Shown here: positions 1,556-60,773 of the stretch, piece by piece
Layout: each line of letters opens with the position of its first letter
Numbering within the stretch: position 1 is the first letter of the stretch
Source of the DNA: Limisphaerales bacterium
GTDB lineage: Bacteria; Verrucomicrobiota; Verrucomicrobiia; Limisphaerales; UBA11358
Assembly (NCBI GenBank): GCA_003161635.1
Contig: PMOA01000060.1
Location: 1 to 60,773 of the forward strand
Reading direction: 5' to 3'
Length of the DNA: 60,773 nucleotides
Program-made: the position numbers and the translations under genes
Notes under the pieces: model-generated
Database searches by the model: none
Told to the model about the DNA's origin: nothing
Seen by the model: the letters and a program-made list of their open reading frames with translations, nothing else

Positions 1556-2028
1556 TTTCTTTTCGGCGATGGTATCCGCCCCGTTCCTGAATTTATAAAC
1601 ACCATCGGTTCAAAATTGATTTGCCACATTTTCCCCTCTGGCACAAAGACTTTCGCGCTGTCCGCTTTGCTCCCATCACAAAAGACTTTGCGCCAGCCCG
1701 ATATTGGCGCGACCAAAGCAGCGTAACCGTTCTCCGAACCGCCTCCGGCTAATTCTCCGCCCGGTAACACCGCTTCCGTCGCGATACGCCTTCGGTTTCT
1801 GATTGGTAGCGGGGACCGGAACGATTCGTCGTCCTTTTGCATTTCCCTGTTAAGGTGACGCTGGTAAATTTTCGGCACGCACAACCAGTCCTTCAACGGC
1901 TAATAATTCCTCGACACGGTTCAGAAATGGGCGTATTCAGCGAACACTGAACACGCTCCTTAAATAGGAATGGGGTTTCGAATTCAAATTTGATTGCCAA
2001 AAGACGAATTGATTCCAAAATTGACCTT

Positions 2029-2295
2029 GTGAAATTTGATTCCCAAAAAATCATTCAATACTTAAATACTAAATGGGCAGTCAAGCCATGCCCAATGTGC
2101 GGTATTATCAAGTGGAACGTTTCCGATAAGCTTTTCGAACTTCGAGAATATCATGGTGGAGATCTTGTGATCGGCGGACAAGCGTCAATTATACCGTTGA
2201 TACCAATTATTTGTAGCAATTGTGGCAACACGATTTTCATAAATGCAATTGTTGCCGGTGTTGAAATTCCTGGTATTCCCCCTCCTGCAAAATGA
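2029..2295 (+). CDS. Small zinc-ribbon protein (CPMC...CSNC)
   Basis: Two CxxC pairs; GTG 2029 (alternative TTG 1990); TGA overlaps next ATG. Confidence 0.8.
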   Translation: MKFDSQKIIQYLNTKWAVKPCPMCGIIKWNVSDKLFELREYHGGDLVIGGQASIIPLIPIICSNCGNTIFINAIVAGVEIPGIPPPAK

Positions 2296-3230
2296 GCTTC
2301 GAGGTAACACAAAATTTTGAATTGGTTTCCCACGAAAAAGGAAAGGCCTATCCAATTTCAGTCAAAGAATGGGAATATCTAAAAGAGCAGATTGGGCAAA
2401 TAGAAGAGCGAGGAAACTTTTGGCAAACGATTGGTTCAATTTTATTGGGGGCAGCCGGCACTGCTGTTCTGAACAGTTTTACAGCGACGTTCCCTACGCC
2501 TCCAGAAGGAAGCCAGTCCATTCCCAAAATCCTGAATTGGGCTTTTTTTCTGATTACTGGCCTTTCTGGATTACTGGCCTTTTTCTTTGGACGCAGTCAA
2601 AAAAAACTCCAAAAGCAATTTGCTCAGAATGTTGTCAGACAGATGGAACTCATCGAGGGGCGTTTCCAAAAAGAAAATTCAATTCAAACAGTTAATCAGA
2701 GGTCTGTTCGGTTTGTTGCTGCCATAACACTAAAACATTTTGCGACAGGAAAGTTCCTTGCGTCATGCCCCAAAAATCACAACCACAAAGGTTCGTCAAA
2801 TCAGCAAATGGTTTATGCTGCAAGTATTTCTGATTCGTATTCTGTGTGGATGCTTAAAGGCCCTCATGGCAAACCCGAAGATTACAACCGCGATAAACCT
2901 GTCAACAATAGCGACATAATTCGCCTCGAACATTTGCTAACAAGAAGGAATCTTCACAGCCACGGTGATCGTCTTTCCCCCATTTCACCACAGCAGGAAA
3001 TCACAGCTTGGGGATCGAATGGTGTGTGCGACGAAAACGATAATTGGCGTGTGGAGATAGAGGGTGGAGGGCAATTGCTCACGGGAAAACGACTGAGACT
3101 AATACATTGCAACACAAATATTGCATTGCACTCGCACATCGCATCTCAACCAGAATTTCTAGATGGCAATCAGGAGGTAACCGGATTTGGCGACAGGGAT
3201 AATAATGCTTTTTGGATTGTCGAATCCTAA
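2292..3230 (+). CDS. 2TM membrane protein with C-terminal MIR (SDF2-like) beta-trefoil domain
   Basis: Two hydrophobic helices (~aa43-63, ~80-100); three repeats ITLKHFATGKFLAS / IRLEHLLTRRNLHSH / LRLIHCNTNIALHSH, each followed by QQMV/QQEIT/NQEVT and a Trp, the MIR repeat pattern. Confidence 0.85.
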   Translation: MSFEVTQNFELVSHEKGKAYPISVKEWEYLKEQIGQIEERGNFWQTIGSILLGAAGTAVLNSFTATFPTPPEGSQSIPKILNWAFFLITGLSGLLAFFFGRSQKKLQKQFAQNVVRQMELIEGRFQKENSIQTVNQRSVRFVAAITLKHFATGKFLASCPKNHNHKGSSNQQMVYAASISDSYSVWMLKGPHGKPEDYNRDKPVNNSDIIRLEHLLTRRNLHSHGDRLSPISPQQEITAWGSNGVCDENDNWRVEIEGGGQLLTGKRLRLIHCNTNIALHSHIASQPEFLDGNQEVTGFGDRDNNAFWIVES

Positions 3231-4078: not shown

Positions 4079-4996
4079 ATGCAAAGCCAGGCGGAAATTT
4101 TTACTGAGTTACGGCCCGTCTTGATGACGCTCGCCCTGCGCATATTGGGCAGCGAAGTGGAGGCCGAGGATATGGTTCAGGAAACTTATCTGCGGTGGGA
4201 GCGAGCCGCCGCCACCGAAGTGCGCTCGCCAAAGGCATTTCTGACGACCATTGTCACCCGCCTCTGCCTTAACCATCTGAAGCTGGCCCGAGTGCGTCTG
4301 GAGCATGCGGACGCACCTTTGCTGCTGGACCGCTTGCCCTCCGACGCGCGCAGTCCGGCGGAGCAGGCCGGGTTCGCCGATGCGCTCACCGAGGCGTTTA
4401 TGTCCGCGCTGGGCAATCTCTCGGCGACCGAACGAGCGGTGTATCTCCTGCGCGAGGCCTTCGCGCTCGATTACGGCGATATTGCTTCGGTGGTGGACCG
4501 CAGCGAAGAGAACTGCCGCCAGATTTTAAAACGTGCCCGGGAGCGGATTGTGTCCAGGGAATCCACCGCCCGACCAGGCCGAGAGCAAACCCAGCGCGTT
4601 GTTTCGGAATTCCTCAACGCGTCTGAAACCGGTGAACTCGAGCCGCTTTTGAGGTTGCTGTCGGATGAAGCCGCGCTGGCCCGGGATCCGGGTGACCTGA
4701 CCAAGCCTGCGCCGCCCTTGATTCATGATCGCGAAATCATGTTCCAAACTCTCGGGAATGCCCTCGCGCAGATGCGCAACGCCAGCGACCGTTTTGTCCT
4801 TTTTCCCATCGGCCAGGACTACGCCTATGTGGCCCGCCGCGGCACAACCGCCAGGGGAGCAATTTTGTTGCGGGTCATTGATCAGAAGGTGGCGGTCGTG
4901 CGGCTGGTGAGTTGCCCGGTGCTGCTGCACCAGCTCCAGATTCTGATGGCTCTGAGCCTCGGTGGAGATGCTGGAAGCGATCCTCACAGCAATTGA
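4079..4996 (+). CDS. ECF sigma factor, SigJ/ECF41-like, with SnoaL-like C-terminal extension
   Basis: AEDMVQETYLRW, ERAVYLLREAF, EENCRQILKRAR, F..A...G.L..LL.LL. Confidence 0.85.
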   Translation: MQSQAEIFTELRPVLMTLALRILGSEVEAEDMVQETYLRWERAAATEVRSPKAFLTTIVTRLCLNHLKLARVRLEHADAPLLLDRLPSDARSPAEQAGFADALTEAFMSALGNLSATERAVYLLREAFALDYGDIASVVDRSEENCRQILKRARERIVSRESTARPGREQTQRVVSEFLNASETGELEPLLRLLSDEAALARDPGDLTKPAPPLIHDREIMFQTLGNALAQMRNASDRFVLFPIGQDYAYVARRGTTARGAILLRVIDQKVAVVRLVSCPVLLHQLQILMALSLGGDAGSDPHSN

Positions 4997-11156: not shown

Positions 11157-11420
11157 GTAGCGGCACGCTTCCAGCGTGCCGGTGATGGCGGCTTCCAGCC
11201 GCCAAGTTGGGTGGGGATGCCGGTCATGCCCCGGGTTCTACGAGGCTGAATCCTGGGAGCGCCGGTGTCCACCCTCCGCAGTGCTGCTACGCCCGTCCTC
11301 CGCCGTAGCCTCGCTACGGAGGGTGGAGAGGACGGGTCTCACCGGCGTGTTTGCCGAGGGACTGGCCGGCGGGACGCCAGTCGTCGCTCCGCTATGCCCC
11401 GGCAAGCCGGCGCTCCCGGG
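11157..11420. repeat. Composite REP cluster with nested insertion
   Basis: GTAG...CTAC unit (11157-11240) plus GGGAGCGCCGG...CCGGCGCTCCC unit holding a 69-nt nested palindrome. Confidence 0.75.
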
Positions 11421-22496: not shown

Positions 22497-22627
22497 GTAG
22501 CGCAGGCATTCCTGCCTGCGGGTTCTGGCGACTTTCCAGTCGCCAGTCCTTGAAAACAAACCGCGCCCGCTGTCAAACACGGGACAGGAATGTCCCGTGA
22601 ACCCGCAGACAAGAATGTCTGCGCTAC
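22497..22627. repeat. GTAG REP doublet
   Basis: GTAGCGCAGGCATTCCTGCCTGCG...CGCAGACAAGAATGTCTGCGCTAC; same family at 34737-34835. Confidence 0.85.
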
Positions 22628-24435
22628 AGCTTTGCCAACTCCGCACCGGCCAGTTGAATCAACGGCTTGATCGTTGCCGCGTCGAATCGAAACGGGCAGC
22701 CGGCGGCGGAAAACAATTCCGGCAACGGGCGCGAGCCGCCGAGCGCGAGCGATTTTTTGTAGTCGTTCAACGTCTTTGCCTTGTTGCGTTTTGAATTCGC
22801 CCAGACCTGCAGCGCGCCGAGCTGCGCGATGCCGTATTCGATGTAGTAAAACGGGTGAGTGAAAATGTGAAGCTGCCGGTGCCAGAGATTGGCCCGCGCC
22901 GCTTTGTACCCACTCCAATCCACGTCCCCGCCGAAACGGTCCATCAATTCCAGCCACGCGGCGGCGCGCTCGGCGCGGCTGTGGCCGGGCTGAGTGTAAA
23001 TCCAGTGCTGGAACTCATCCACCGTGGCAATCCACGGGAAAACTCCGATGATACCTTCCAAATGAACCCGCCGCGCGCGGTTCGCGTCGGCGGCGGAATA
23101 AAATTCCTCGATGAATTCGTTGCCGAGCAGTTCCATGCTCATTGAGGCGACCTCGCAGAATTCAATGGGCGGGCTGTTGCGATAGGCATGCAAATCCTCG
23201 TTGCGCGCGGCCAGCGCGTGAAAGGCATGGCCGGCCTCGTGCAGAATCGTCTCCACGTCGCGCTGCTGGCCGACGGCATTCATAAAAATGAACGGCACGC
23301 GCGCCTCGGCCAGCGTCTGCTGATAGCCGCCCGGGGCCTTGCCTTTGCGATTGTCGAGGTCGAGCAGGCGCAGGTTCTGCATTTGCCGGAAACCGCCCGC
23401 GAGTTCGCCGTCCAGCCGGTCAAAAATTTTCTGCGTGCGCGAAACCATTTCGTCCACCGGCCCGAACGGTTTCAACGGCGGACGATTCTGCGGGTCAACC
23501 GCCAAATCCCACGGACGCAGGTGGCCCGGATGCAATTTGTCGAGGCCCAGTTGGTGGCGGCGGGCGGCGTGGAGTTCGCGCACGGCGGGCATGACTTCCC
23601 GGGCGACCGCATCGTGAAAACGCGTGCAATCCTGCGGCGTGTAATCGAACCGGCCGAGCCGGCGGAAGGCGTAATCGCGATAATTTTTGAACCCGGCGTT
23701 CCGGGCGGTTTGCTGGCGGAGTTCGATGAGCCGGTCGAAAATTTCGTCGAAATTGTCCACCTCCTGCAAACGCCGTCTGGCCACCAGTTCCCAGGCCTCC
23801 TGGCGCAGCGCGCGGTCCGGCTCTTCCAGGTAACAGCCCATCTGAACGAGCGTCTTTTCATCGCCGCGAAAGTTCACCGTGAGCGAGCCGGTCAATTTCT
23901 GGTATTGCTGGCAGAGCTTGGCGTCCTCGGTTTCAAGCGCGACGTTTTCCTGCCGGAACAGCTCGACGTGATTCTTTACGTCGCGGTCAAAGACTTCATA
24001 ACGCCGGAACGCCGGCCTCCGGCCCGACTCGTTGTCAACGGTTCGAGCCGGACCGGAGGCCGGCGCTCCAATCGCAAGCAGTTCGACGCGCTGCGGATGG
24101 GTGACGTAAATTTTTTCGAGCGCGAACTGGCGCGGCTTGAGTTGCGGCTCGACGTTTTCGACGAAATACAGATACGCCTTCTCCGCCTCGGCATTATCCG
24201 TGTGGCAGGTCATGGCGATGTAACGGCGGGACGATTCCTCGTCCAGCGCGGCGGTGAGTTCGCTCCAGTCGAGCAGCCAGCGTTCGAGGTCGGCGGCGAA
24301 TTTACATTGCGCGGCGCGTTTTTCCAACTGGTCGAACAGCGGCGCGATTTGCGGCCAGTCGCCGAGGTCAATGGTTTGCGGAACAAAGGTCCGGACTTTG
24401 TGGGCGGGCAATTTTCCAAACGGCAACAAATTCAT
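22624..24435 (-). CDS. pepF: M3-family oligoendopeptidase
   Basis: HEAGHAFH zinc motif, KAPGGY, EVASMSME, PFYYIEY. Confidence 0.92.
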   Translation of the reverse strand: MNLLPFGKLPAHKVRTFVPQTIDLGDWPQIAPLFDQLEKRAAQCKFAADLERWLLDWSELTAALDEESSRRYIAMTCHTDNAEAEKAYLYFVENVEPQLKPRQFALEKIYVTHPQRVELLAIGAPASGPARTVDNESGRRPAFRRYEVFDRDVKNHVELFRQENVALETEDAKLCQQYQKLTGSLTVNFRGDEKTLVQMGCYLEEPDRALRQEAWELVARRRLQEVDNFDEIFDRLIELRQQTARNAGFKNYRDYAFRRLGRFDYTPQDCTRFHDAVAREVMPAVRELHAARRHQLGLDKLHPGHLRPWDLAVDPQNRPPLKPFGPVDEMVSRTQKIFDRLDGELAGGFRQMQNLRLLDLDNRKGKAPGGYQQTLAEARVPFIFMNAVGQQRDVETILHEAGHAFHALAARNEDLHAYRNSPPIEFCEVASMSMELLGNEFIEEFYSAADANRARRVHLEGIIGVFPWIATVDEFQHWIYTQPGHSRAERAAAWLELMDRFGGDVDWSGYKAARANLWHRQLHIFTHPFYYIEYGIAQLGALQVWANSKRNKAKTLNDYKKSLALGGSRPLPELFSAAGCPFRFDAATIKPLIQLAGAELAKL

Positions 24436-24486
24436 GCGCGCAAAGGATAGGGAAAGCTGGCCCGAGGGAAATGAATTTTACACAAC

Positions 24487-48725: not shown

Positions 48726-49676
48726 ATGAGTGAAAGGGTGGTAAATCTCTTCCTTTATGTGGAACGTAACCTCATCAAGAGTCTTGGTGCGGTTGCACAC
48801 GATTTCGAAGGCGATGACAATTCGGCCAAGGTTTTCCTCCAACGTCGAGCGGGTGTTGATGCTTCTCTTGCGACTCGTTATCCACTCCCTATCGCGGACA
48901 TCAAATCCTGGTTGGGAGTTGATGCAGGGCAAGGCTTGTCTCTTGAAATATTTTCTTATCTTAGGAGAATCGGAAAGAGTATTTGGCTTTTTGAGGGTCC
49001 GCTTCGAGACCTTCAGGCTCCAGAGATTCCACTTGTCTGTATCACGCCGATTGTGGACGGAAAACCGCTCATCGATAGCGTTGCGCATGTAAATCCACCG
49101 GCCTGCCCAGTAATCGTTTCTGAAGTATTCGATGGCATCATGAGGCGAACCGATTGGCTGGCTGCATACGTTACGCCTTCAGGCTTAAATGTGCATGATT
49201 TACTCCATGATGACTTCACCGAGGCCATCAAGCTTCTTTACGCGCACAAACATTACACATCAGCAATTAAGCTCCTCGTATCCTTGGTTGATACAGTGGC
49301 TTTTCTCGATCTTGGAGATGTCACAGGCAATTACGAGATATGGCTCTCCAAACATGCTACGCTTACCCAGGTCGGCGTGACACCCTCTGAATTATGGGAG
49401 TTCAGAAATGCAGTTTTGCACATGACCAATCCACTCTCTCGAAAAGTGCTGTCTGGCAAGGTGCTTGCCCTCACTTTCTACACCGACCCCACCTTCAAAA
49501 GTGTTCGCATCGACCCAGATAGCGGCACGAAGATGTTCTCTTTTGAGGCTCTTTATGAGGCAATCGTAGAAGCTGTTGACGCATGGACGAAATCGTATTC
49601 TCAAAACTTGTCCAAACAATTGGAGTTTATCCAGCGTTACGACACCATTCTACGGAAGGGTGAACTTCAAAATTGA
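48726..49676 (+). CDS. Hypothetical protein with possible HEPN-like C-terminal domain
   Basis: AT-richer; helical region AIKLL..LVDTVAFL and RNAVLH (RX4H). Confidence 0.65.
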   Translation: MSERVVNLFLYVERNLIKSLGAVAHDFEGDDNSAKVFLQRRAGVDASLATRYPLPIADIKSWLGVDAGQGLSLEIFSYLRRIGKSIWLFEGPLRDLQAPEIPLVCITPIVDGKPLIDSVAHVNPPACPVIVSEVFDGIMRRTDWLAAYVTPSGLNVHDLLHDDFTEAIKLLYAHKHYTSAIKLLVSLVDTVAFLDLGDVTGNYEIWLSKHATLTQVGVTPSELWEFRNAVLHMTNPLSRKVLSGKVLALTFYTDPTFKSVRIDPDSGTKMFSFEALYEAIVEAVDAWTKSYSQNLSKQLEFIQRYDTILRKGELQN

Positions 49677-50798: not shown

Positions 50799-51242
50799 TC
50801 AAGCCGATTCGGCGTTCCTTTGCTTCATCCAAACCTTGCCAAGTTCGGCCAGCGTTTTGTCTTTCATCACCCGCTCGGCCAGCGGGAAAACAATCCGTTC
50901 CTCACGGTCAAAGTGTTTGCGCGATGCGGTCACGGCGAGCAGCAACAACTGTCGCGCTTCGGGCAGCCGCTTGGCGGCCTTCACCCGCAGCAGGCTGTTG
51001 TCAATTTCCTGATGTTCGTGTTCAAAACTGTCGCGCTGGCCAAGTTGTTCCAGGTAATGATTCAGTGGAGCGAACACCAAATCTTCCTCGGTCTTGCCGT
51101 GTGCGAGCAGCAACCCTTCCATCAATCCAGCCCATCCTTTCACCTCGGCCAGCGTTTTCAGCTTCGGCACGACGTGTTCGATGTGGTCGAAAATATTGTG
51201 GAACACGACGTGTTCCGCCAAAAGTGCATCGGTTATCTTCAT
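50799..51242 (-). CDS. Hemerythrin/HHE-domain protein
   Basis: L.AEH, H..TEE..VF, EHEHQEI, HFDREE..VFP. Confidence 0.88.
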   Translation of the reverse strand: MKITDALLAEHVVFHNIFDHIEHVVPKLKTLAEVKGWAGLMEGLLLAHGKTEEDLVFAPLNHYLEQLGQRDSFEHEHQEIDNSLLRVKAAKRLPEARQLLLLAVTASRKHFDREERIVFPLAERVMKDKTLAELGKVWMKQRNAESA

Positions 51243-51260
51243 GTTCCTCGAAAGTTTACA

Positions 51261-51347
51261 TCAAGAAATGAAAGTGTCCATCCCCGCGCAGTTGCAAACC
51301 GGGTTGCGATCGCCAAAGACGTTGTCAATGCGGCTGGCGTGCGGCCA
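51261..51347 (-). pseudogene. Diverged orphan copy of the gcvP 3' end (copy 2)
   Basis: WPHASRIDNVFGDRNPVCNCAGMDTFIS* vs gene [28 protein letters not shown]. Confidence 0.9.
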
Positions 51348-51594
51348 TAAATTGCCATGTCCCTGCGGTCGAAAGGCCAGTTCCGGGACGCTTGCAGAAT
51401 GGCCTGGGCTTTGGGGCAGGTGATCACGATGGTCGCATCGTCCTCGACCTTGGGATAAACATCCGGCTTGATGTGCTGCGTCATGGCAAAAGCGGAGACG
51501 AGCCGCTGGCCACCACGAACCACGTCGCCAGGTCCGCGCCGTAACAGCCAAAATCATTCACCGCACCGCCACCGTTGAGCACGGGATCAGTCAA
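51338..51594 (-). pseudogene. Internal fragment of a Gfo/Idh/MocA oxidoreductase, frameshifted
   Basis: LTDPVLNGGGAVNDFGCYGADLATW / fs / TQHIKPDVYPKVEDDATIV..QAS.NWPFDR.DM.IYGRT. Confidence 0.75.
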
Positions 51595-51685
51595 CGGGAA
51601 CTTCATTTTCAAAGGCAATCGTCGTTGGAAACTGCCAAGTCAATGTTGTGGTGCGTGAAACACCACCCAACAACATCAAAACGTC

Positions 51686-52555
51686 CTACTTGAGGACTGA
51701 GGTTCTTTGCATCAGCCAGCTTACGTCGCCCACCCCGGCTTGAGCCGCCACCTGCGTGTTAAGGGGTCCATTGTAAGTGATAAGATTTGAATCCCTCCAT
51801 TTATGAATCTCAGAATGGCCGTCGGCAAAAGAAATTCCGCAGGCATCATTATGGTAAGTGGCCGGCTTATCCACCCAACTATTTGGATCTGTGCAGAACC
51901 AACCGTCGTTGATGCTCCATGGATTTTCATCCAACATGACCCAGCAATTCGCAGCTCCCATTACAGCAATATCACCTTGTTTCCTGAATATTCTGTAATT
52001 CGGATTAAGCGGCGCCATGCTTGTCATAATATGATCCACTATCGGACTCATGTATCCATTCATGGATATGCTGCGGACAGTTGGTGCATCCACGCCTCCC
52101 GGTGGAACTGTTTGTCCAAAAAACACCGTCCTCGGATCGGCTGGACACTTGAAGAGCGCAACATTTGGAGCGTAAGGAAATATCAATCCCAGTTTTAGCA
52201 AATTTACATTTGCCGCCGCCGCAGGCTTTTGCATGTCGCCATAAATCCACTGATTCTCGGGATTTCCTGGATCGGTATAAGGATTTGGCAGACCGGTGAC
52301 CTGAAGAGACCCTTGACCCGATGTTGGAACAATCCGGTCATTATTGTCCGTGCTGTAAATTAGCCAGCCATGCTGAATCTGGCGCAGGTTGTTCAAGCAT
52401 TGAAACGCTTGGGTATTGGGACCGGTTTTGGCCAATGCGGGCAGAAGCATCATCGCCAACAAACCGAGCGTGGCTATCACGACGAGCAACTCAACGAAGG
52501 TAAAAGCGTCGGCGGCTTTGGACTTCGATATTAATTTGTAGTGTCTGGAATTCAT
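51686..52555 (-). CDS. Prepilin-type N-methylation / H-X9-DG domain protein
   Basis: AFTFVELLVVIA..LLPAL, C.NNLRQ, FKCPAD, HNDACGISFADGH. Confidence 0.9.
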   Translation of the reverse strand: MNSRHYKLISKSKAADAFTFVELLVVIATLGLLAMMLLPALAKTGPNTQAFQCLNNLRQIQHGWLIYSTDNNDRIVPTSGQGSLQVTGLPNPYTDPGNPENQWIYGDMQKPAAAANVNLLKLGLIFPYAPNVALFKCPADPRTVFFGQTVPPGGVDAPTVRSISMNGYMSPIVDHIMTSMAPLNPNYRIFRKQGDIAVMGAANCWVMLDENPWSINDGWFCTDPNSWVDKPATYHNDACGISFADGHSEIHKWRDSNLITYNGPLNTQVAAQAGVGDVSWLMQRTSVLK

Positions 52556-52574
52556 AAGCACGAGAGTTGTTGTT

Positions 52575-55500
52575 TCAATTGGCAACGACGCGATAAAATC
52601 TCTGCCCGGAGGAGGGTGACGGGTCAGTCGTGTATGCCCGGTTTCCCAAAACCGTAATCGTCCCGCCCACTTCTTGCCAACTGCTGTCGCTCAAGTCATT
52701 TTTAAATTGAACGTGGTAGCTCAGCCCGGAGACAAACGGCCAACTGATGACGGGACCATCGCCAGGAGCGGCACCAAGGGTAACGTCGGCATAGAAAAAT
52801 GTGAAGGCAACGATATCAGCGGCTTGATTGAAATCATTGACAACGGAATCACTTGCCCAACTTTGAAAAATGATCGTCCGCCCGTCGGCGCTGAAGACCG
52901 GCATCAAGGAACGGTTGTTCGCCGTTGCGCCGGACAGGCTCGTGCTTAAAAGGATTGTCTCACCGCTCAAGCGATCGTTGACGAACACGTCGGGAAGGCC
53001 GTTAATATCCCCAGCCACCAGGTTCGTGGCCGCGCTGCGATAAACCACGAAGCGGCCATCGGCGCTGATATCTGGAGAATCGGATGCGTCATTGCCCCCA
53101 ACGCTGACGAGAAAATTTGTTCCGGTTTGAAAATCGTAAAGATAAACATCCTGAACTGTGTTGGCATCGCCAGTGGCATTGATAGCGCTGGTTGCATAAA
53201 CGAGCCATCGTGCATCGCCGCTAAACCGCAGGCCTGGATGGGAGGTAAAGGTGCCCGCGCTGGCCACCCAATTGGAATTGATGGAAAGGCCCACCACATT
53301 CAAACTTGCCGGCGTGCCTGCCAGATAGGCCAGCCGCCGGCCATCGGGACTGATTGAAACAGCGGTTGGCGAAGCAGCATTGGTATAAATCCGCGCGGCA
53401 GCCAGTGTGTCCCAGACATACAAACGCACGGTCGTCCCACTGAGTATGCCCGCGTAAACGACGAAACGTCCGTCCGGAGTCATGGCCGCTGCAGAAACGC
53501 CTGTTCCCGAAGTTGCCGTGGTCAACGCGTAATTGGTTCCTTGCTGCACATCGCGCAAGAACAGATTGTCAATCCCGCTGCCGAACGAGCCTGCCGTCAA
53601 ATTCGACGCTTTACTGTGGAATAAAACATAGCGACCATCCCGGCTGATCGCAGGCGAAAAGGAGTTGCTGTTCCCGGGATGAATGCCGTCCAAGCTCGCG
53701 CTCACCAGCCTCGTTGTTCCGGTCTGCAGGTCGCGAAGGAACACATCCTGAGTGATGTTTGCGTCACCCGCGATGAGGTTGTTGGCATAACTGGAGAAAG
53801 CCACATAGCGACCATCCCCGCTGATGGCTGGCTCAAAGGAAAATCCTGAAGCAGCAACTCCATTCGTATCCGCACTCACCAAAACGTTCGTGCCGAGGAG
53901 AAGATCACGCACGAACACGTTGCGCTGACTGTTGGTGTCGCCAAGAATCAGATCATCCGCGTCACTGCTGAACGCCACGTAGCGCCCGTCGGCGCTGACG
54001 GATCCTGGATAAAGCCCGCTGATGCCATTTGGCGTATGAGAGGTCAACGTTGGATCGGGAACGGAAATCAATTCCGTCGTTTCCGCGACCGTATCGCGCA
54101 CAATGACGTCGGCTGCATGGTTGCGGTCGTTGGGCACCAGGTTTCCATTCATGCAATCGAACACGACGAATCGGCCATCGGCACTCAAGCCGGGAACGGT
54201 CATGGGAGGCACGCCCGCACCAACACCATTGGTATCCCCATCCACCAATTTCGTAATGCCGGCCTGCTGGTCGCGGACATACACATGAAATTGTCCGTCA
54301 AATGTATTGGCCACCAGATTTGTTCCGCTGCCAACGAAGGCGACGAATTGCCCGTTCGAACTGACCAATGGCGAACTGCAAATCCCATCTGACACCAACC
54401 CGCTGTCGCGATTCATGCTGACGAGTGTGTTTGTCCCGGTTTGCGCGTCCCACAAATAGATCGCCGTGTTCACTGCCGGCGAGTTGCCCGCCACGTTGGC
54501 GACAAACGCGATGAACCGTCCATCGGGTGTCATATCCAGGGTATAAAAATCGCCCAAAGGCCCGGAAATCACGTTGGCGTTCGTGCCCACGATATCCGTG
54601 CCGCTGGTCTGCATATTCTGCCGCAGAACAAGGCCGTTCGCGTTGAAGCTCGGTGGATTGGTTGCGGTTTCAAACGCCACAAAATTGCCATCCGAACTGA
54701 TACTTGGGCAGTAAGAAACCACGTTCGACGTGCCAAGCAAAGAATACGCGATGGATCGCGCATTGACGCTCGCCCACTTGGTTTGCGCTGTGGTCAGGTC
54801 TCGAATGTAAATTTCGCCTGCAGTCGTTACCCCGGGCATGAGGTTGGTGGCACTGCTGGAAAAGGCGACGTAGCGGCCATCTGGCGTGATCACCGGCGAT
54901 TCCGAACTACTCGTCAACGCGGTGGAATTCGTAGATGTCGCGCCGACGCTGACAAGTGCTGTGGTCGAACTCTGCAAATCACGAACAAACACATCGGTGA
55001 TTTGGTTTGTGTCACCTGCCACCAGATTTGTTGCCGCGCTGACGAACGCCACATAACGCCCGTCGGGCGTCATCACCGAATTGCGCGACACCCCGTTGGC
55101 AGTCCCGCCGTAAAGGCTCGCGCTGGCGAGCATCGTCGTGCCGTTTAGTAGATCGCGCACGAATACATCACTGGCGTTGTTGGTATCATTGGCCACCAAA
55201 TCACTGGCGACACTTTCGAAGAGCACATATTGGCCATTGGTGGAAATTCCTTGCGGCCATGAATTCCCGTTGCCGCCGCCCGTTCCCGAAAGATTGACGC
55301 TGATCAACCGGGTCGTGCCGTTGGTCCGGTCGCGAAGATACACATTCATGCTGACAGGAAACAGGGAAGGAATGGCCACGCCGTTGCTGTTTAAGATCAG
55401 ATTGCTTGCCGTGCTCGCAAACAATACATAACGCCCATCCGGGCTGATCATCGCATCCACCGAATCTCCTCCGGCACCGGCTGAAGTCAGGAGAGAAGGA

Positions 55501-55619
55501 TCGGGTTGTGAAACCAGTTGTAAAAAAGCGGCCGTCACCGGCAAAACACATCCCAAAAGAACGACAGCAACTATTTTGCACTTCGAAAGAAGAAACGATT
55601 TTTGGAAAGTGGCATGCAT
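52575..55619 (-). CDS. Large secreted PD40/TolB-like beta-propeller repeat protein
   Basis: Many S.DGR.VAF.S.A.NLV..DTN...DVFVRD repeats; C-terminal ISWP..Y.VQ...L....W..QRFYRV domain. Confidence 0.88.
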   Translation of the reverse strand: MHATFQKSFLLSKCKIVAVVLLGCVLPVTAAFLQLVSQPDPSLLTSAGAGGDSVDAMISPDGRYVLFASTASNLILNSNGVAIPSLFPVSMNVYLRDRTNGTTRLISVNLSGTGGGNGNSWPQGISTNGQYVLFESVASDLVANDTNNASDVFVRDLLNGTTMLASASLYGGTANGVSRNSVMTPDGRYVAFVSAATNLVAGDTNQITDVFVRDLQSSTTALVSVGATSTNSTALTSSSESPVITPDGRYVAFSSSATNLMPGVTTAGEIYIRDLTTAQTKWASVNARSIAYSLLGTSNVVSYCPSISSDGNFVAFETATNPPSFNANGLVLRQNMQTSGTDIVGTNANVISGPLGDFYTLDMTPDGRFIAFVANVAGNSPAVNTAIYLWDAQTGTNTLVSMNRDSGLVSDGICSSPLVSSNGQFVAFVGSGTNLVANTFDGQFHVYVRDQQAGITKLVDGDTNGVGAGVPPMTVPGLSADGRFVVFDCMNGNLVPNDRNHAADVIVRDTVAETTELISVPDPTLTSHTPNGISGLYPGSVSADGRYVAFSSDADDLILGDTNSQRNVFVRDLLLGTNVLVSADTNGVAASGFSFEPAISGDGRYVAFSSYANNLIAGDANITQDVFLRDLQTGTTRLVSASLDGIHPGNSNSFSPAISRDGRYVLFHSKASNLTAGSFGSGIDNLFLRDVQQGTNYALTTATSGTGVSAAAMTPDGRFVVYAGILSGTTVRLYVWDTLAAARIYTNAASPTAVSISPDGRRLAYLAGTPASLNVVGLSINSNWVASAGTFTSHPGLRFSGDARWLVYATSAINATGDANTVQDVYLYDFQTGTNFLVSVGGNDASDSPDISADGRFVVYRSAATNLVAGDINGLPDVFVNDRLSGETILLSTSLSGATANNRSLMPVFSADGRTIIFQSWASDSVVNDFNQAADIVAFTFFYADVTLGAAPGDGPVISWPFVSGLSYHVQFKNDLSDSSWQEVGGTITVLGNRAYTTDPSPSSGQRFYRVVAN

Positions 55620-55927
55620 ACCGTGTGTTCCATCAATTCTGCTTGCAGGGCAAGCATGGCAGCGCGAATAAGCGCGGTCAATTCAAAAAAAGAAGCTTTC
55701 CTGAATAAATTGCCTGTTTTCCCTGTGCGGAAACAAAGAACCACAACAAGGAGTCTTGTCGCTTCCTTCATCAATTAATTCCCTGCAAACCACGCAACTT
55801 CGGGGATGGTGCTTGGTCGAGTTTGCCAGAACCAATATGCGTTTGATTGTCATGCGTCACACAATGACCATGCCACTGTATTGAGATTACCTGTTTATCT
55901 GGCTTTCGCAATCCTGTCGGGTGCGAC

Positions 55928-55966
55928 TTAATTCTCGTAATTCTCCATCCCCACGCACGAGCAGAC
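55928..55966 (-). pseudogene. Diverged orphan copy of the gcvP 3' end (copy 1)
   Basis: VCSCVGMENYEN* vs gene [12 protein letters not shown], separated from the gcvP stop by a 33-nt repeat. Confidence 0.8.
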
Positions 55967-55999
55967 CCGCCTTTGCTGCGCTATGGCGAGGCAAGCCGT

Positions 56000-58900
56000 T
56001 TAGCTTTGATATATTTCCATTCCGATACAGGAACACACAGGATTACGATCGCCATACACGTTGTCCACGCGGCTGACGTGCGGCCAGAATTTGTAGTCAC
56101 GCAGGCCCGGCACCGGGTATGCCGCCTGTTCGCGCGAGTAGGGGCGATTCCAAGCATCGCTGGCAATTTGATCCGCTGTGTGCGGCGCGTTCTTGAGCAG
56201 GTTGTTCTGCCGGTCCGCCGCGCCGGATTCGATGGCGGTCATCTCGGCGTGAATGGAAATCATCGCGTCGCAGAAACGGTCCAGTTCGACCTTCGATTCG
56301 CTTTCCGTCGGCTCGACCATCAGCGTGCCGGCGACCGGCCACGAGAGCGTCGGCGCATGAAAACCGTAATCCATCAGCCGTTTCGCCACGTCCTCGGCGG
56401 TGACACTCTTGAACTGGCGCAAATCAAGGATGCACTCGTGCGCGACCCGACCTTTGCGCCCGCGATACAGCACCGGGAAATAATTTTCCATGCGTTTGGC
56501 GATATAGTTGGCGTTCAGGATGGCAAACTTGGTGGCTTCAGTCAGGCCGTCCGGGCCCATCGCGGCAATGTAAGCCCAGGAAATCGGCAAAATGCCCGCG
56601 CTGCCCCACGGCGCAGCGGCCACCGGGCCGATACGTTGGAGTTCAACCTTTAGGTTATTCCCGGCACCCGAACACGCTGAAGCGTGAACTCCAACACGGT
56701 CGAGTCGTGACGTAAAAACCGGGTGTCCTGGTAAAAACGAAACCAGGTGTTTGGCCACGCCAATCGGCCCGACGCCCGGCCCGCCGCCGCCGTGCGGAAT
56801 GCAGAATGTCTTGTGCAGGTTCAAATGGCAGACGTCCGCGCCGATGTCCGCCGGACGGCACAAACCGACCTGTGCGTTCATGTTCGCCCCGTCCATGTAA
56901 ACCTGTCCGCCGTTGGTGTGGATGATTTCGCAAATCTCCTTGATCGTCTCCTCAAACACGCCGTGCGTGGACGGATACGTGACCATCAGGCAGGCGAGGT
57001 CGGCTTTGTGCGACTCGGCTTTGGCGCGCAAATCAGCAACGTCAATGTTCCCGTTCTTGTCGCAGGCGACGGCAACGACTTTCAGCCCGGCCATGACAGC
57101 ACTGGCGGGGTTCGTGCCGTGCGCGGAGGTCGGGATGAGGCAGACGTTGCGGTGCGCTTCGCCCCGGCTTTCGTGATAAGCGCGGATGACGAGCTGGCCG
57201 GCGTATTCGCCCTGTGAACCGGCGTTGGGTTGCAGGGAAATTCCGGCGAACCCGGTGATTTCCAAAAGCCAGTCCTCAAGTTGTTGAAACAAAATCTGGT
57301 AGCCGCGCGCCTGTTTCAGCGGCGCAAAGGGATGGAGTTTTGCAAACTCCGGCCACGAAATCGGCAGCATTTCAAAGGTGGCGTTCAGCTTCATCGTGCA
57401 GGAGCCGAGCGGAATCATCGAAGCCGTCAGGGAGAGGTCGCGCGATTCGAGCCGCTTGATGTAGCGCAGCATTTGGGTCTCAGAGTGGTAGGAGTTGAAG
57501 ACCCGGTGGATAAGGAAAGGTGTGGTTCGGGCGAAGTGTGACGCAATTCCACTCTCATTAGCACCGGGCTTCAGCCCGGTGTTTGAGGTGGCGGAAATTG
57601 AAACCGTTTTAACGGTTTCGCGCGCGGACGAGGAAGCCGTTGAAACGGCTGGTATGTCGTCGTTCATTTTCACACCTGGCTGAAGCCCGGTGCTAATGAG
57701 ATCTGCGGCTACATCCGCCACTGTGAAACCTATGGCCTTGTCACCCTTAAAAATCTGCCAGATCTCGATGACGTCGCTTTCGCTGGTCGCTTCGTCGAGC
57801 GAGATGCCCAGCGTATGGTCGTCAATTTCGCGGAAATTCATCCGGTGCGCTTCGGCAGTTTTGAGAATGTTCGCTGCCGGCTTTTGGCCGAGTTCGATGC
57901 GAATCGTGTCAAAAAACGTGCTGCCAGCATCCTGCTGGCAGTTCTGACCTTTTGAATTATTCTGCCGGCGGGACGCCGGCAGCACGTTGTAACCCAGTTT
58001 TTCCAGGCCGGCGGCGAGAATTCCGGTCAGGGCGTGAATCCGCTGCGCGATTTTCTTCAAGCCTTCCGGCCCGTGATAAACGGCATACATGGACGCCATG
58101 TTCGCCAGCAACGCCTGCGCGGTGCAGATGTTACTGGTGGCTTTTTCACGACGGATGTGTTGTTCACGCGTCTGGAGCGCGAGGCGCAAAGCGGGTTTGC
58201 CGCGCGAATCCTTCGAAACGCCGACGATACGTCCGGGCAGGCTGCGTTTGAACTGGTCACGCGTGGCGAAAAACGCCGCGTGCGGGCCGCCGTAGCCCAG
58301 CGGCACGCCGAAGCGTTGCGCGCTGCCGATGGCGATGTCCGCGCTGAATTCCCCCGGCGGTTTCAATAATGTGAGTGCCAGCAAATCAGTCGCAACCGCG
58401 ACCATCGCTCCAGCAGCGTGGGCTTTTTCGACGAACGGCGCGTAATCGTGGATGGCGCCAAACGTGTCGGGATATTGCACCAGCGCACCGAAGACTTTTC
58501 CGTCGAATTGAAAACTCTCGTGATTACCCACGACAACTTCGATGCCGAGAGCTTTGGCGCGCGTCCGGACAACTTCGATGTTTTGCGGATGACAACTCTG
58601 CGAGATGAAGAAAATGTTCCGGTTGTCCTTGAGCGCATGACACATCGTCATGGCCTCGGCGGCGGCGGTGGCTTCGTCAAGCAGCGACGCATTGGCGATG
58701 TCGAGGCCGGTGAGATCGGCGACCATCGTCTGGAAATTCAGGAGCGCTTCGAGCCGGCCCTGGGAAATTTCGGCCTGATAGGGCGTGTATTGCGTGTACC
58801 AGCCGGGGTTCTCCAAAACGTTGCGCTGAATCACCGCCGGTGTGATGCAATCGTAATAGCCCATGCCGATGAACGAGCGGCAGACCTGGTTTTGCGACGC

Positions 58901-59149
58901 GATTTCCTTCAACGCGGCGAGGACTTCATGTTCACTGCGGGCGGCGGGAAGTTGAAGCAAACGCCCGAGTCGAATCGGTTTGGGAACGGCGGCGTCAATC
59001 AACGCGTCGAGGCTCGCGTAGCCGAGTTGCTTGAGCATTTCGCCGGCGTCGGCAGGACGCGGGCCAATGTGGCGGCGGACAAACCGGTCGGGATGCGGCG
59101 CGTTTTCGACGGGCTTCAAAATTTTATTCTGCTTTTCGGAAAAAGCCAT
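56000..59149 (-). CDS. gcvP: Glycine dehydrogenase (decarboxylating), GCS P protein
   Basis: [50 protein letters not shown]; three in-frame palindromic inserts. Confidence 0.98.
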
Positions 59150-59392
59150 GCGCGGAAACTAAAGTTGCGGCACGGCAATGCAAGCGGATTCAGGGCAAAA
59201 CGATGGCAAAACCCGCCGTTATTTTTACATAAAACCAGCAACCGGCACGGGTTGGGGATGCCCCAATATATGGCATAAGCCGGCCGGCATGGCCACAATT
59301 CATTGTGTTTTTAGACGTTTTTTTGACCAAATAAAGGTTGTGTTAAATCGTCGATTTTTCTATTCTTTTTAAGCTTTCACGGACCCGGTTAA

Positions 59393-60773
<1,381 letters not shown>

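Follow-up and report, generated by a model that had tools for sequence, protein, structure and literature searches.

Two displaced tails of gcvP in a Limisphaerales bacterium, best read as footprints of foreign DNA acquired without a mobile element

Prophage-like elements such as e14 or phage 21, which enter the icd gene of E. coli at its 3' end, bring a replacement gene end with them. Homology-facilitated illegitimate recombination (HFIR) is well established by laboratory work; how much of natural gene gain it accounts for is, to our knowledge, not known. HFIR has been described in the natural transformation of Acinetobacter baylyi, Streptococcus pneumoniae, and Pseudomonas stutzeri, with microhomologies of 3–10 bp (PMC6382021). 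Insertion hotspots that are free of mobile genetic elements (MGEs), with recombination in the flanking core genes, have been described as well (PMC5635113), and according to one study of such regions, the sources of homologous recombination cannot be separated by any specific hallmark (PMC12359135).

Here we analyse a window of 60,773 nucleotides, the whole of the stretch examined, from a Limisphaerales bacterium (contig PMOA01000060.1 of assembly GCA_003161635.1). It contains three 3' ends of gcvP, a functional tail, relic 1, and relic 2, at the positions given by the original prediction and on the minus strand (Table 1). The best reading of the two leftover tail copies behind the intact gcvP is that they are footprints of approximately 4.8 kb of foreign DNA, which entered by ordinary recombination rather than with a mobile element. 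The mechanism itself is known; the footprints are unusually clear here and recur across the genome.

The locus resembles HFIR, as described in the source cited above, in having a homologous crossover as an anchor in a shared gene, a nearby illegitimate joint at a microhomology of a few bases, and foreign DNA between the two, without mobile-element functions. By contrast, HFIR has been shown in the laboratory, whereas the events considered here are deduced from natural genomes of uncultured peat Verrucomicrobiota. The joint is located inside the anchor gene itself, and therefore a displaced gene tail records each event. As in the MGE-free hotspots (PMC5635113, PMC12359135), the same conserved pair, gcvP and hemerythrin/AstE/bioB, encloses very different cargo in related genomes, integrases and transposases are absent, and the flanking core gene is a mosaic. 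The hotspot studies model double homologous recombination; in the present case, one of the two sides is illegitimate, and the scar that it leaves can be counted. As with e14 or phage 21, the gene is kept intact by a 3' end that came with the insert, and its native counterpart is found as a pseudogene fragment on the far side. The locus differs in having neither an integrase nor a fixed crossover site; in addition, an unrelated gene contributed the fragment that forms the far arm, and the sequence already changes upstream of the repeat.

Table 1 Features of the gcvP locus, listed from the start of gcvP towards its ancestral downstream neighbor (positions in the window).
Feature	Positions	Strand	Remarks
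gcvP, glycine dehydrogenase P-protein, 1049 aa, intact	56000..59149	-	Pfam GDC-P E 3e-200, GcvP2_C E 1.5e-57
Native part of gcvP, putative homologous anchor side	56171..59149	-	7.8% divergence from G112; blastn 91% over window 59800-56718
Putatively imported gcvP 3' end with working tail (...GMEIYQS and stop, EAYQS-type)	56000..56170	-	max-chi2 change-point
Functional gcvP tail	56000-56086	-
33-nt copy of a dispersed short repeat	55967..55999	-	Immediately past the gcvP stop; ~28 genome copies
Relic 1, displaced gcvP tail RVCSCVGMENYEN and stop (ENY-type)	55928..55966	-	In frame with gcvP, 33 nt past its stop
Native-type gcvP downstream spacer and stub of a DuOB-domain gene (its first ~34 codons)	55751..55927	-	ORF start 55853
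Two-gene cassette with upstream region	51679..55749	-	82.4% nt over 4087 nt to Verrucomicrobiia MAG L089/G179
PD40 beta-propeller protein, 1014 aa	52575-55619	-	Pfam, NCBIfam
Pseudopilin-like protein, 299 aa	51686-52585	-	Pfam, NCBIfam
Spacer with hairpin after the pseudopilin gene	51607..51678	-	L089 homology stops at 51679
Internal fragment of a Gfo/Idh/MocA-like oxidoreductase	51345..51606	-	76% nt to own paralog C74:33734-34927
Illegitimate joint, TGG common to oxidoreductase and gcvP	51345..51347	-	7/9 with imperfect flanks
Relic 2, displaced native gcvP tail WPHASRIDNVFGDRNPVCNCAGMDTFIS and stop	51261..51347	-	Colinear with G100 and G011 working tails
Hemerythrin-domain gene, ancestral downstream neighbor of gcvP	50799..51242	-	Pfam Hemerythrin E 4e-12

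Relic 2 is identified as the native tail of gcvP by comparison with G100 and G011, the sister species (the closest species is G112): together with the 18-nt spacer behind it and the beginning of the hemerythrin gene, it is colinear with the working gcvP tails of both. The end of the G100 tail, GMDTFIS followed by the stop codon and CKLSRNMKITDAL, corresponds to relic 2 together with its spacer and the start of the hemerythrin gene, and G100 aligns with window positions 51354–49918 as a single block. Of the 26 tails compared, that of G011 is nearest to relic 2 (65/75). Relic 2 is detected by tblastn with E values of 1e-7 (full gcvP) and 2e-11 (last 40 amino acids), and over 78 nt it shares 76% identity with the functional tail, at a spacing of 4739 nt. 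The first 18 nt of the relic are odd: they are identical to the working copy at 17 of 18 positions and differ from G011 at 6 of 22. The true joint could be a little further in, or sequence may have been exchanged between the copies. A separate gcvP paralog, which had been named as a source of relic 2 that would undermine the proposal, was not found by tblastn against the genome, in which gcvP is the sole full copy.

The hemerythrin gene, now 4.76 kb from gcvP, was formerly 18 nt behind it. It has the same position in G112, G017, G011, and G100, with 87–93% amino acid identity, and the neighboring gyrB is common to G017 and G112 (98% amino acid identity). The predicted ancestral arrangement, gcvP followed directly by hemerythrin, is found in relatives: hemerythrin is 8–361 nt from the gcvP stop codon in 7 of the 26 examined, and in five more the distance is 0.8–4.0 kb. 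The tails of G100 and G011 are of the relic 2 type.

The working tail, which is full length and keeps gcvP intact, differs from the displaced tail by 24%, and the two match different species; the working one is closest to G042 and G145 (62/75). Over gcvP positions 1650–3147, the sequence differs from that of G112 by 7.8% up to position 2980 and by 28.6% beyond it; this position corresponds to ~56170 in the window (chi2 70; 0/300 permutations). The change-points relative to G100 and G011 are at positions 2976 and 2979, and were reached in 0/300 or 0/500 permutations. These permutation tests ignore variation of rates among sites, for which the contrast with other reference genomes is the sole control; the jump at ~56170 is absent in comparisons with G004, G022, G016, G069, G145, and G042. 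We read the change-point as a homologous crossover at ~56170–56174, in keeping with the proposed role of gcvP as the anchor; it indicates that gcvP sequence itself was imported. Positions 1000–1600 and 2400–2500 of gcvP also vary, and relative to G017 the maximum change-point is at 2409 instead; the gene is therefore mosaic elsewhere, and the change-point alone is not unique evidence.

Rather than one acquisition of ~4.6 kb, the insert is a patchwork with at least four illegitimate junctions, and its segments differ in their nearest relatives. Its 4.8 kb comprise the EAYQS-type gcvP end, the 33-nt repeat, relic 1, the 34-codon DuOB stub, the cassette of beta-propeller and pseudopilin genes, and the oxidoreductase fragment, and homology at the four junctions is slight or absent (TGG; GGTC; ~1 nt at 55750). 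The repeat, counted in the genome with at most five mismatches to a 31-nt pattern, has an 18-nt core with 38 matches, compared with 4–11 for five shuffled cores; it has no notable fold (z -0.04). The same repeat is positioned right after the gcvP stop codon in G069, G145, and G042. Relic 1 matches working gcvP tails of other genomes at 28/28 bases (G023) and 29/30 (G012, G014). Because the junction between the repeat and relic 1 is common to G069 and G145, the event that formed it predates this genome; relic 1 probably arrived ready-made, and two successive captures within this genome, as originally proposed, are not required. Adjacent to it, the window positions 55751–55967 are identical at 161 of 217 nt (74%) to the gcvP end of G013 and the start of its 236-residue DuOB gene (PF22557, E 2e-46).

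The only two cargo genes identified by Pfam among the ORFs of the insert encode the beta-propeller and prepilin-like proteins that had been predicted between the relics. The N_methyl motif of the pseudopilin-like protein scores 17.4 bits, under the cut-off of 21.2, and its N-terminus matches that of GspG with an E value of 3e-5. A propeller gene followed by a pseudopilin gene is found at all seven homolog loci of relatives. The related cassette of L089/G179 belongs to a distant genome, where it occupies another locus with unrelated flanks; the gcvP of that genome is only 69% identical in amino acids and has a different tail. The hairpin behind the pseudopilin gene has a folding energy of -20.1 kcal/mol (z -1.6), which 14 of 200 shuffled sequences equal. 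Propeller, pseudopilin, and oxidoreductase genes are absent behind gcvP in 26 relatives, and the DNA of the insert is therefore foreign at this place. A donor was not found among 163 genomes of the genus, in which the best nucleotide identities are at most 67% for the propeller, 79% for the oxidoreductase fragment, and 84% for the imported gcvP end. Insertion by a transposon or insertion sequence was considered and rejected: the insert ORFs include no transposase (Pfam), no inverted repeat was found at the insert ends among the 25 longest pairs, and what flanks the insert as a "repeat" is a diverged gene tail of 87 nt rather than a target duplication.

The right joint is placed by the oxidoreductase fragment, which lacks ~230 N-terminal and ~70 C-terminal codons and is shifted in frame by a 1-nt deletion near 51513. 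It is identical to the C74 paralog at 191 of 250 nt, and no oxidoreductase is near gcvP in any of the genomes examined. Oxidoreductase homology extends up to TTTATGG, whereas gcvP homology starts with TGGCCGCACG, so that the two overlap by 3 nt, a length inside the range given for HFIR (PMC6382021). The oxidoreductase homologs in C74, G138, and G065 read TTTATGG or TCTACGC and then GCAAACC or GCAGACC (YGQT or YAQT); the window has CCGCACG after TTTATGG, and past the joint its oxidoreductase frame is unrelated. Since the three homologs continue with GCAAACC, the segment CCGCACG is gcvP sequence, which leaves TGG, located 84 nt downstream of the crossover, as the exact overlap. The 10-mer TGGCCGCACG, originally taken as a 10-nt microhomology at the joint, does occur exactly twice in the window (51338–51347 and 56077–56086), but it is not the overlap. 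Two matches are also reached in 9 of 100 shuffled sequences, so that the count is weak alone; the 10-mer has the same gcvP position in 8 of 20 aligned relatives. If an oxidoreductase ortholog natively carried TATGGCCGCACG beside a gcvP-type tail, the joint would pre-exist in a circular element.

Tail relics are found in 8 of 27 genomes overall, and in 5 of the 20 that were fetched regardless of their tails. Relatives contain the relics RNPICTCAGMEAYQS (G004), KFRAHVGRVDNVFGDRN (G021), and RMDNVFDDRNPVC (G022), and others in G023, G042 (45 amino acids), and G027 (~120 amino acids). The left ends of relics, WPH (28 aa), VCSC (13 aa), RNP (15 aa), FGDRNP (18 aa), an internal 17-aa piece, 45 aa, and ~120 aa, vary between genomes, which argues against a fixed crossover site. 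The cargo behind gcvP in relatives includes a Pel9A-like protein with a sigma factor, GH28, DuOB with DUF488, a Schlafen-like helicase, two-component systems, a sulfatase, or a pseudopilin, or there is none. With pectinases, sigma factors, and two-component systems among the cargo, a hotspot for swapping surface proteins is too narrow a description. Among 50 ORFs behind gcvP in relatives, none matches integrase or transposase families (E <= 1e-6), and the contig of the locus (C95) has no match to the tyrosine integrase family PF00589, of which the genome has 15. An integrase-free insertion hotspot behind gcvP is the best explanation of these observations. Of the original prediction, the gcvP anchor, the ancestral state, and the integrase-free hotspot thus stand; the 10-nt microhomology, the single acquisition, and the restriction to surface cargo do not, and the two captures are not required.

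We consider it rather likely that the relics are footprints of HFIR at this hotspot. The ancestor would have had gyrB and gcvP as neighbors with hemerythrin downstream of gcvP, as G112, G017, G100, and G011 still do. Incoming linear foreign DNA would have contained the 3' part of gcvP from another lineage and whatever followed it. On the left side, it would have paired with the resident gcvP and crossed over at ~56170; on the right, its far end within the oxidoreductase gene would have been joined illegitimately at TGG inside the resident gcvP. By this event, 4823 nt (56170–51348) would have taken the place of 84 nt of native gcvP, the imported tail would have kept the gene intact, and the native gene would have left its final 87 nt as relic 2, still attached to hemerythrin. 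The import would already have been scarred by earlier events of the same kind, which would account for relic 1 behind the repeat, the DuOB stub, the cassette, and the oxidoreductase fragment; these scars may stem from the donor lineage or from earlier rounds here. The observations show that relic 2 is the native tail, where the change-point is, where the joint is and how long, the patchwork, the recurrence in relatives, and the lack of integrases; from them we infer the route of uptake, a dependence on RecA, and the order of the older events. Genes for ComEC and DprA are present, but 10 of 14 control genomes have each of them too.

An insert-borne gene end that keeps gcvP intact does not discriminate between HFIR and integrative elements, which share it. 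A decayed site-specific element, with an att site mimicking the 3' end of gcvP and an integrase that was later lost, would have supplied the working tail and displaced the native tail to its far end. The first 18 nt of the two copies, identical at 17 positions, could be read as an att core, and a dispersed repeat is positioned at one junction; yet the divergence jump begins 84 nt upstream of this supposed core, and the relic left ends of 13 to ~120 amino acids do not share the crossover core expected of independent insertions. Moreover, the far arm would be an in-frame internal piece of an oxidoreductase, with homology ending exactly at the joint, and integrases are missing from the insert, from the contig, and from the insert ORFs of relatives. 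Such an origin is very unlikely. Joining at microhomologies during replication or repair, by template switching or by end joining after breaks, could have placed own or co-resident DNA behind gcvP within the lineage, without a homologous anchor. This would agree with the four junctions of little or no homology and with the paralogs that the genome contains of each piece of cargo: C2 has one of the pseudopilin (82% nt), C74 and C67 have propellers, and C74 also has the oxidoreductase. The insert pieces are 18–24% diverged from these paralogs and hence are not recent internal copies, the working and displaced tails match different species, and the change-point indicates that gcvP sequence itself was imported. 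The strong one-directional bias of tail relics in the genome (see below) is consistent with an anchored import, in which the gene has to be restored. We regard joining of this kind as improbable.

The probability that strain variants of gcvP ends were wrongly joined during metagenome assembly or binning is close to negligible. The genome is a metagenome-type assembly of 159 contigs, and gcvP ends of other strains occur in the same samples, with loose ends at 55937, 55967, and 56095 and an X13 contig that joins 55967 to 56226. Against this, the two junction regions (51347/8 and 55928–56000) are bridged with 0 differences by Logan contigs from four runs of four different studies, none of them flagged as a possible source, spanning 51207–52258 and 52232–56087 or more, and at least 96% of the sampled words are held by 18 runs of 12 studies. 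The joints share only 3–4 nt, which is too little to mislead a k-mer graph, and G069 and G145 independently have the same double tail. Misassembly, named beforehand as a refutation, is thus not borne out.

In this genome, 19 of 2500 long ORFs have a relic-like copy of their tail downstream on the same strand, compared with 1 upstream on the same strand, 0 downstream on the opposite strand, and 1 upstream on the opposite strand. Approximately 0.8% of long genes therefore have a tail fossil, nearly all downstream and on the same strand. The 18 loci other than gcvP come from the ORF scan of this genome alone; in three cases the copy continues beyond the stop codon and could be a plain duplication, and another locus, on C116, is a few kb from an integrase gene. 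The intervals of 17 relics contain no integrase or transposase among 26 ORFs.

The practical consequences at the locus are modest: a surface-type cassette of propeller and pseudopilin was gained, and the hemerythrin gene was severed from gcvP. At this locus, the two ends of such an event can be read to the base in an uncultured lineage of soil and peat, the native arrangement persists in sister species, and similar fossils accompany gcvP in other species as well as ~18 other genes of this genome. Should the pattern seen across the genome hold, tail relics would provide a simple count of integrase-free acquisitions and a way to date their order, because older relics are positioned further from the gene. 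It is possible, but in our view doubtful, that one-sided recombination, homologous at one end and illegitimate at the other, has a general and countable hallmark in displaced tails, and that this route rather than mobile elements is a main way of gene gain in this lineage of peat Verrucomicrobiota. If so, a scan of genomes for tail fossils would be a measure of natural HFIR, which present population-genomic methods are unable to tell apart from other recombination.

The gcvP gene (minus strand) has no second full copy anywhere in the genome (G000; 4.3 Mb, 159 contigs). Downstream of its working tail lie two displaced copies of its 3' end, relic 1 and relic 2. Relic 2 is 76% identical to the working tail (78 nt compared), and relic 1 is 28/28 and 29/30 identical to working gcvP tails of relatives (genomes G023, G012 and G014). 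A 4823-nt insert (56170–51348) separates a crossover in gcvP from relic 2; its segments (a) to (f) are listed in gcvP orientation.

Features of the gcvP locus and related loci (window positions unless a contig, C, or a relative's locus, L, is given)
Feature	Position	Strand	Details
gcvP, intact	56000–59149	-	Pfam GDC-P, E 3e-200
gcvP linker inserts	57500–58150, 56650–56750		gcvP positions ~1000–1600, 2400–2500
Relic 1	55928–55966	-	Reads RVCSCVGMENYEN*; 33 bases past gcvP stop, in gcvP frame
Relic 2	51261–51347	-	Reads WPHASRIDNVFGDRNPVCNCAGMDTFIS*; 4.7 kb beyond relic 1; hemerythrin gene start 18 bases later
(a) Imported gcvP end	56170–56000	-	Tail type ...EAYQS*, that of G042, G069, G145
(b) Dispersed-repeat copy, 33 nt	55967–55999		~28 genome copies
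(c) Relic 1 + 176 nt			74% identical to G013 gcvP end, spacer and first DuOB-gene codons
(d) Cassette, PD40 propeller protein and pseudopilin-like protein	55749–51679		82.4% over 4087 nt to Verrucomicrobiia MAG
(e) 72 nt with hairpin			Between cassette and oxidoreductase fragment
(f) Oxidoreductase fragment, Gfo/Idh/MocA-like, internal	51345–51606	-	Last segment of insert; 76% (191/250) to own paralog on C74
DuOB-gene stub	55683–55853	-
Second repeat copy in window	~11378–11408
316-aa ORF	48726–49676	+	Between bioB and AstE-like gene
Relic-like locus besides gcvP	22624–24477
Example relic loci, G000	C128:54243–55751, C53:8810–10573, C143:19111–21006, C59:64748–65767, C8:49227–50702, C80:2801–4228
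Paralogous cassette, G000	C2:30033–34973
DuOB-domain gene, relative's locus	L045:1217–2553
gcvP end and copy, G027	L050:958–1125, 4272–4541

Comparison with related genomes identifies relic 2 as the native gcvP tail. The original prediction expected relatives to have gcvP directly before the hemerythrin gene with a tail like relic 2, and this arrangement has been found. In the sister species G100, the end of the working gcvP, ...GMDTFIS*CKLSRNMKITDAL, matches relic 2, the spacer and the hemerythrin start, and window positions 51354–49918 align with G100 in a single blastn block. The closest to relic 2 among 26 tails is that of another sister species, G011 (65/75). In the closest species, G112 (amino acid identity of 88% for gcvP, 98% for gyrB, 93% for hemerythrin and 94% for bioB), the order gyrB <-> gcvP -> hemerythrin -> AstE-like <- bioB is that of the window minus the insert. 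The 26 relatives comprise 20 from the first search and a biased set of six picked later for matching the tail region of the window or bearing a relic; the hemerythrin gene lies 8–361 nt past gcvP in seven of them (G017, G011, G008, G010, G112, G100 and G145), 0.8–4.0 kb past it in five (G069, G001, G022, G021 and G163), and was not found within the fetched stretch in 14. The arrangement in the relatives also excludes the origin of relic 2 from a separate gcvP paralog. Further along the window, a 316-residue ORF has a GC content of 47.5% compared to 56.8% for the genome. It matches nothing in Pfam or NCBIfam, nor, by tblastn, in the loci of the 26 relatives, and is probably another insertion.

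The left boundary of the insert is, judging from the alignments, a homologous crossover inside gcvP. In a maximum chi-squared change-point analysis restricted to gcvP positions 1650–3147, the divergence between the window and G112 rises from 7.8% to 28.6% at position 2980 (window 56170; chi2 70; 0/300 permutations), with the caveats that gcvP is mosaic in its linkers too and that permutations ignore rate variation along the gene. The change-point lies at 2976 against G100 and at 2979 against G011 (0/300 and 0/500 permutations, respectively), and there is no comparable jump against G004, G022, G016, G069, G145 or G042. Below 56260 the window and G112 stay almost identical for ~88 bases and diverge after that. 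The relative G017 was dropped as a breakpoint reference, its maximum chi-squared peak being at 2409, in a variable linker, and not near 2980. The linker inserts of gcvP are long and poorly conserved, and their nearest relative shifts along the gene, being G001 or G022 in one stretch and G112 elsewhere. The mosaic character of the gene thus extends beyond the insertion event studied here.

At its right boundary the insert ends in an illegitimate joint. The oxidoreductase fragment adjoining relic 2 lacks both gene ends and contains a 1-nt deletion. The sequence at the joint is TTTATGG GCAAACC (YGQT) in the C74 paralog and in the G138 ortholog, and TCTACGC GCAGACC (YAQT) in the G065 ortholog; past it the oxidoreductase homologs run on as GYV.VPQ.... 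In the window, TTTATGG CCGCACG stands there instead, with gcvP sequence thereafter. The homologs have GCAAACC or GCAGACC at this place, so CCGCACG comes from gcvP. The exact overlap between oxidoreductase and gcvP is TGG, 3 nt (7/9 when the imperfect flank AAxTTxTGG is counted), not the 10-nt microhomology originally proposed; both window copies of that 10-mer, TGGCCGCACG, simply mark where the two gcvP tails begin. Two copies were also reached by 9 of 100 shuffles, so the 10-mer was ruled out as an unusual repeat in statistical terms. The TGG overlap falls inside the range of 3–10 bp quoted for homology-facilitated illegitimate recombination (HFIR) in PMC6382021.

With at least four illegitimate junctions, the insert is a patchwork, and its nearest relatives differ from segment to segment, none of them above 74–84% identity. 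About 34 codons of the DuOB-domain gene remain in it. A full DuOB gene (PF22557) followed by a DUF488 gene lies directly behind gcvP in G013, and in G100 a DuOB gene follows a detached relic of the gcvP tail (NPVCACVGMEVYQN*), the two lying on a different contig from gcvP itself. The dispersed repeat of ~31 nt, consensus GGCTTGCCGCGCCATAGCGnAGCGAnGGCGG, which occurs at ~28 places in the genome, directly follows the stop codon of gcvP in G069, G145 and G042 as well. The flanks of the cassette in the Verrucomicrobiia MAG are unrelated to those in the window, and the propeller gene is followed by the pseudopilin gene in 7/7 homolog loci of relatives. Neither a near-identical donor, searched for with the whole cargo and with the gcvP end, nor one with the segment order of the insert was found among 163 genus genomes, a tally including one unpublished genome, G117, on which no claim is based. 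A contig scan with the propeller detected a relative with 80% amino acid identity (locus L089); that genome was rejected as donor, its gcvP not being of the donor type. The paralogous cassette on C2 encodes a 1313-residue secreted protein and then a pseudopilin-like protein with 72% amino acid (82% nucleotide) identity to that of the window, and the secreted protein and the window propeller protein share the C-terminal end ...RFYRV. Such two-gene cassettes seem to form a family in this organism. A reading of the C74 propeller and the C2 pseudopilin as the separated halves of a single paralogous cassette was rejected, as C2 has its own 1313-residue upstream gene. An Rfam scan of 51000–59500 (E <= 1) gave four sub-threshold chance matches and nothing else. 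In folding calculations neither the 33-nt repeat (z -0.04) nor the hairpin past the pseudopilin gene (z -1.6) stands out.

Relic 1, which is of the ENY type, does not appear to have been made in this genome alone. Double tails occur in G069 (...GMEAYQS*, repeat, RVCTCVGMENYT*) and G145 (...GMDAYQS*, repeat, RACTCAGMETYPG*), with the same repeat-to-relic joint as in the window, GGCGGG|TCTGC or GGCGGG|CCTGC. In G042 the EAYQS tail is followed by the repeat, and no relic is present. The arrangement is reversed in G004, where ENYT* is the working end and an EAYQS-type relic lies 60 nt behind it. The double tails and the reversed order imply that the genus carries two types of tail in circulation, with repeated displacement of one by the other. 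This genome probably received the double tail preassembled, together with the imported gcvP end; the alternative is repeated formation of the same repeat-to-relic joint.

At least 96% of sampled words of 51100–56300 are present in 18 metagenome runs from 12 studies, and those of the runs that carry an organism label are all peat metagenomes. In four runs of four studies, none flagged as a possible source, contigs span 51207–52258 (or from 51100) and 52232–56087 (or to 56300) with 0 differences. Both junction regions are therefore bridged, which excludes misassembly, a possibility raised with the original prediction and less likely than recombination as an account of the locus. Loose contig ends occur at 55937, 55967 and 56095, and one contig of run X13 links 55967 to 56226, skipping 258 bases (window 55937–56226; also in X12). 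These ends indicate that the same samples harbour other strains with other gcvP ends, in which the relic-1-type tail seems to be the working end.

HFIR is the simplest account of the locus. The conserved 3' part of gcvP would anchor linear foreign DNA through homologous pairing, and the far end of that DNA would join the resident gene 84 nt further down, through the 3-nt microhomology. A complete tail would come with the import, so that the essential gcvP survives, and the native tail would be left behind as a neutral fossil. Successive rounds would move older fossils and stubs away from gcvP. An internal microhomology-mediated rearrangement is less likely. Also less likely is the reading of the locus as decayed integrative elements. 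The claim that it lacks an integrase holds: PF00589 has no match on the contig of the window, and 0/50 ORFs downstream of gcvP in relatives match integrase or transposase families (E <= 1e-6). ComEC and DprA are present, which is uninformative.

The region behind gcvP is an integrase-free hotspot. A uniform tblastn survey, in which 27 tails were compared with as much as 10 kb of downstream sequence (E <= 1e-3, a threshold missed by the 13-residue relics of G000, relic 1, and G145), detected relics in 8/27 genomes (G000, G004, G021, G022, G023, G027, G042 and G069), including 5/20 relatives fetched without regard to tails. G012, G013 and G100 hold more relics, located either at the end of a contig or on a contig that does not carry gcvP. 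The left ends of the relics are all different, and the cargo past gcvP varies by species. In G027, from another family of the same taxonomic order, the working gcvP stops early (...VCACAGK*), and 3.2 kb further downstream, past GntR and DUF6159 genes, there is a gcvP-end copy of ~120 residues interrupted by a single stop.

Tail fossils may also be frequent and directional throughout the genome, a lead for which reads and relatives were checked at the gcvP locus alone, 1 of 19. The last 40 residues of 2500 crudely called, non-overlapping ORFs of at least 200 residues were compared with same-strand sequence up to 10 kb downstream, outside the ORF itself. Copies were found for 46 ORFs; 19 are relic-like, with no more than 60 residues covered among the last 250, and the others are neighbouring paralogs. 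The same filter gave one copy upstream on the same strand, none downstream on the opposite strand and one upstream on the opposite strand. The relic-like copies comprise the last 19–60 residues, are 70–96% identical in nucleotides to the working tails, and mostly end at the stop codon. Three, on C116, C37 and C114, extend beyond it and may be ordinary duplications; an integrase gene lies a few kb from the C116 relic. The intervals carry an Ig-repeat giant protein, a PEP-CTERM protein, histidine kinases, and glycosyl- and methyltransferases, and 0/26 ORFs in 17 intervals match integrase or transposase families (E <= 1e-5).

Hotspots free of mobile genetic elements are already described in PMC5635113, and one-sided patterns are acknowledged, without a hallmark, in PMC12359135. 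A literature search of limited coverage for HFIR footprints in genomic islands found no description of displaced gene tails, which does not amount to their absence in print. Thus, HFIR and hotspots free of mobile genetic elements are known as kinds; the gcvP locus adds a very clean natural example from an uncultured lineage, together with a lead that directional fossils of this type may be frequent genome-wide.
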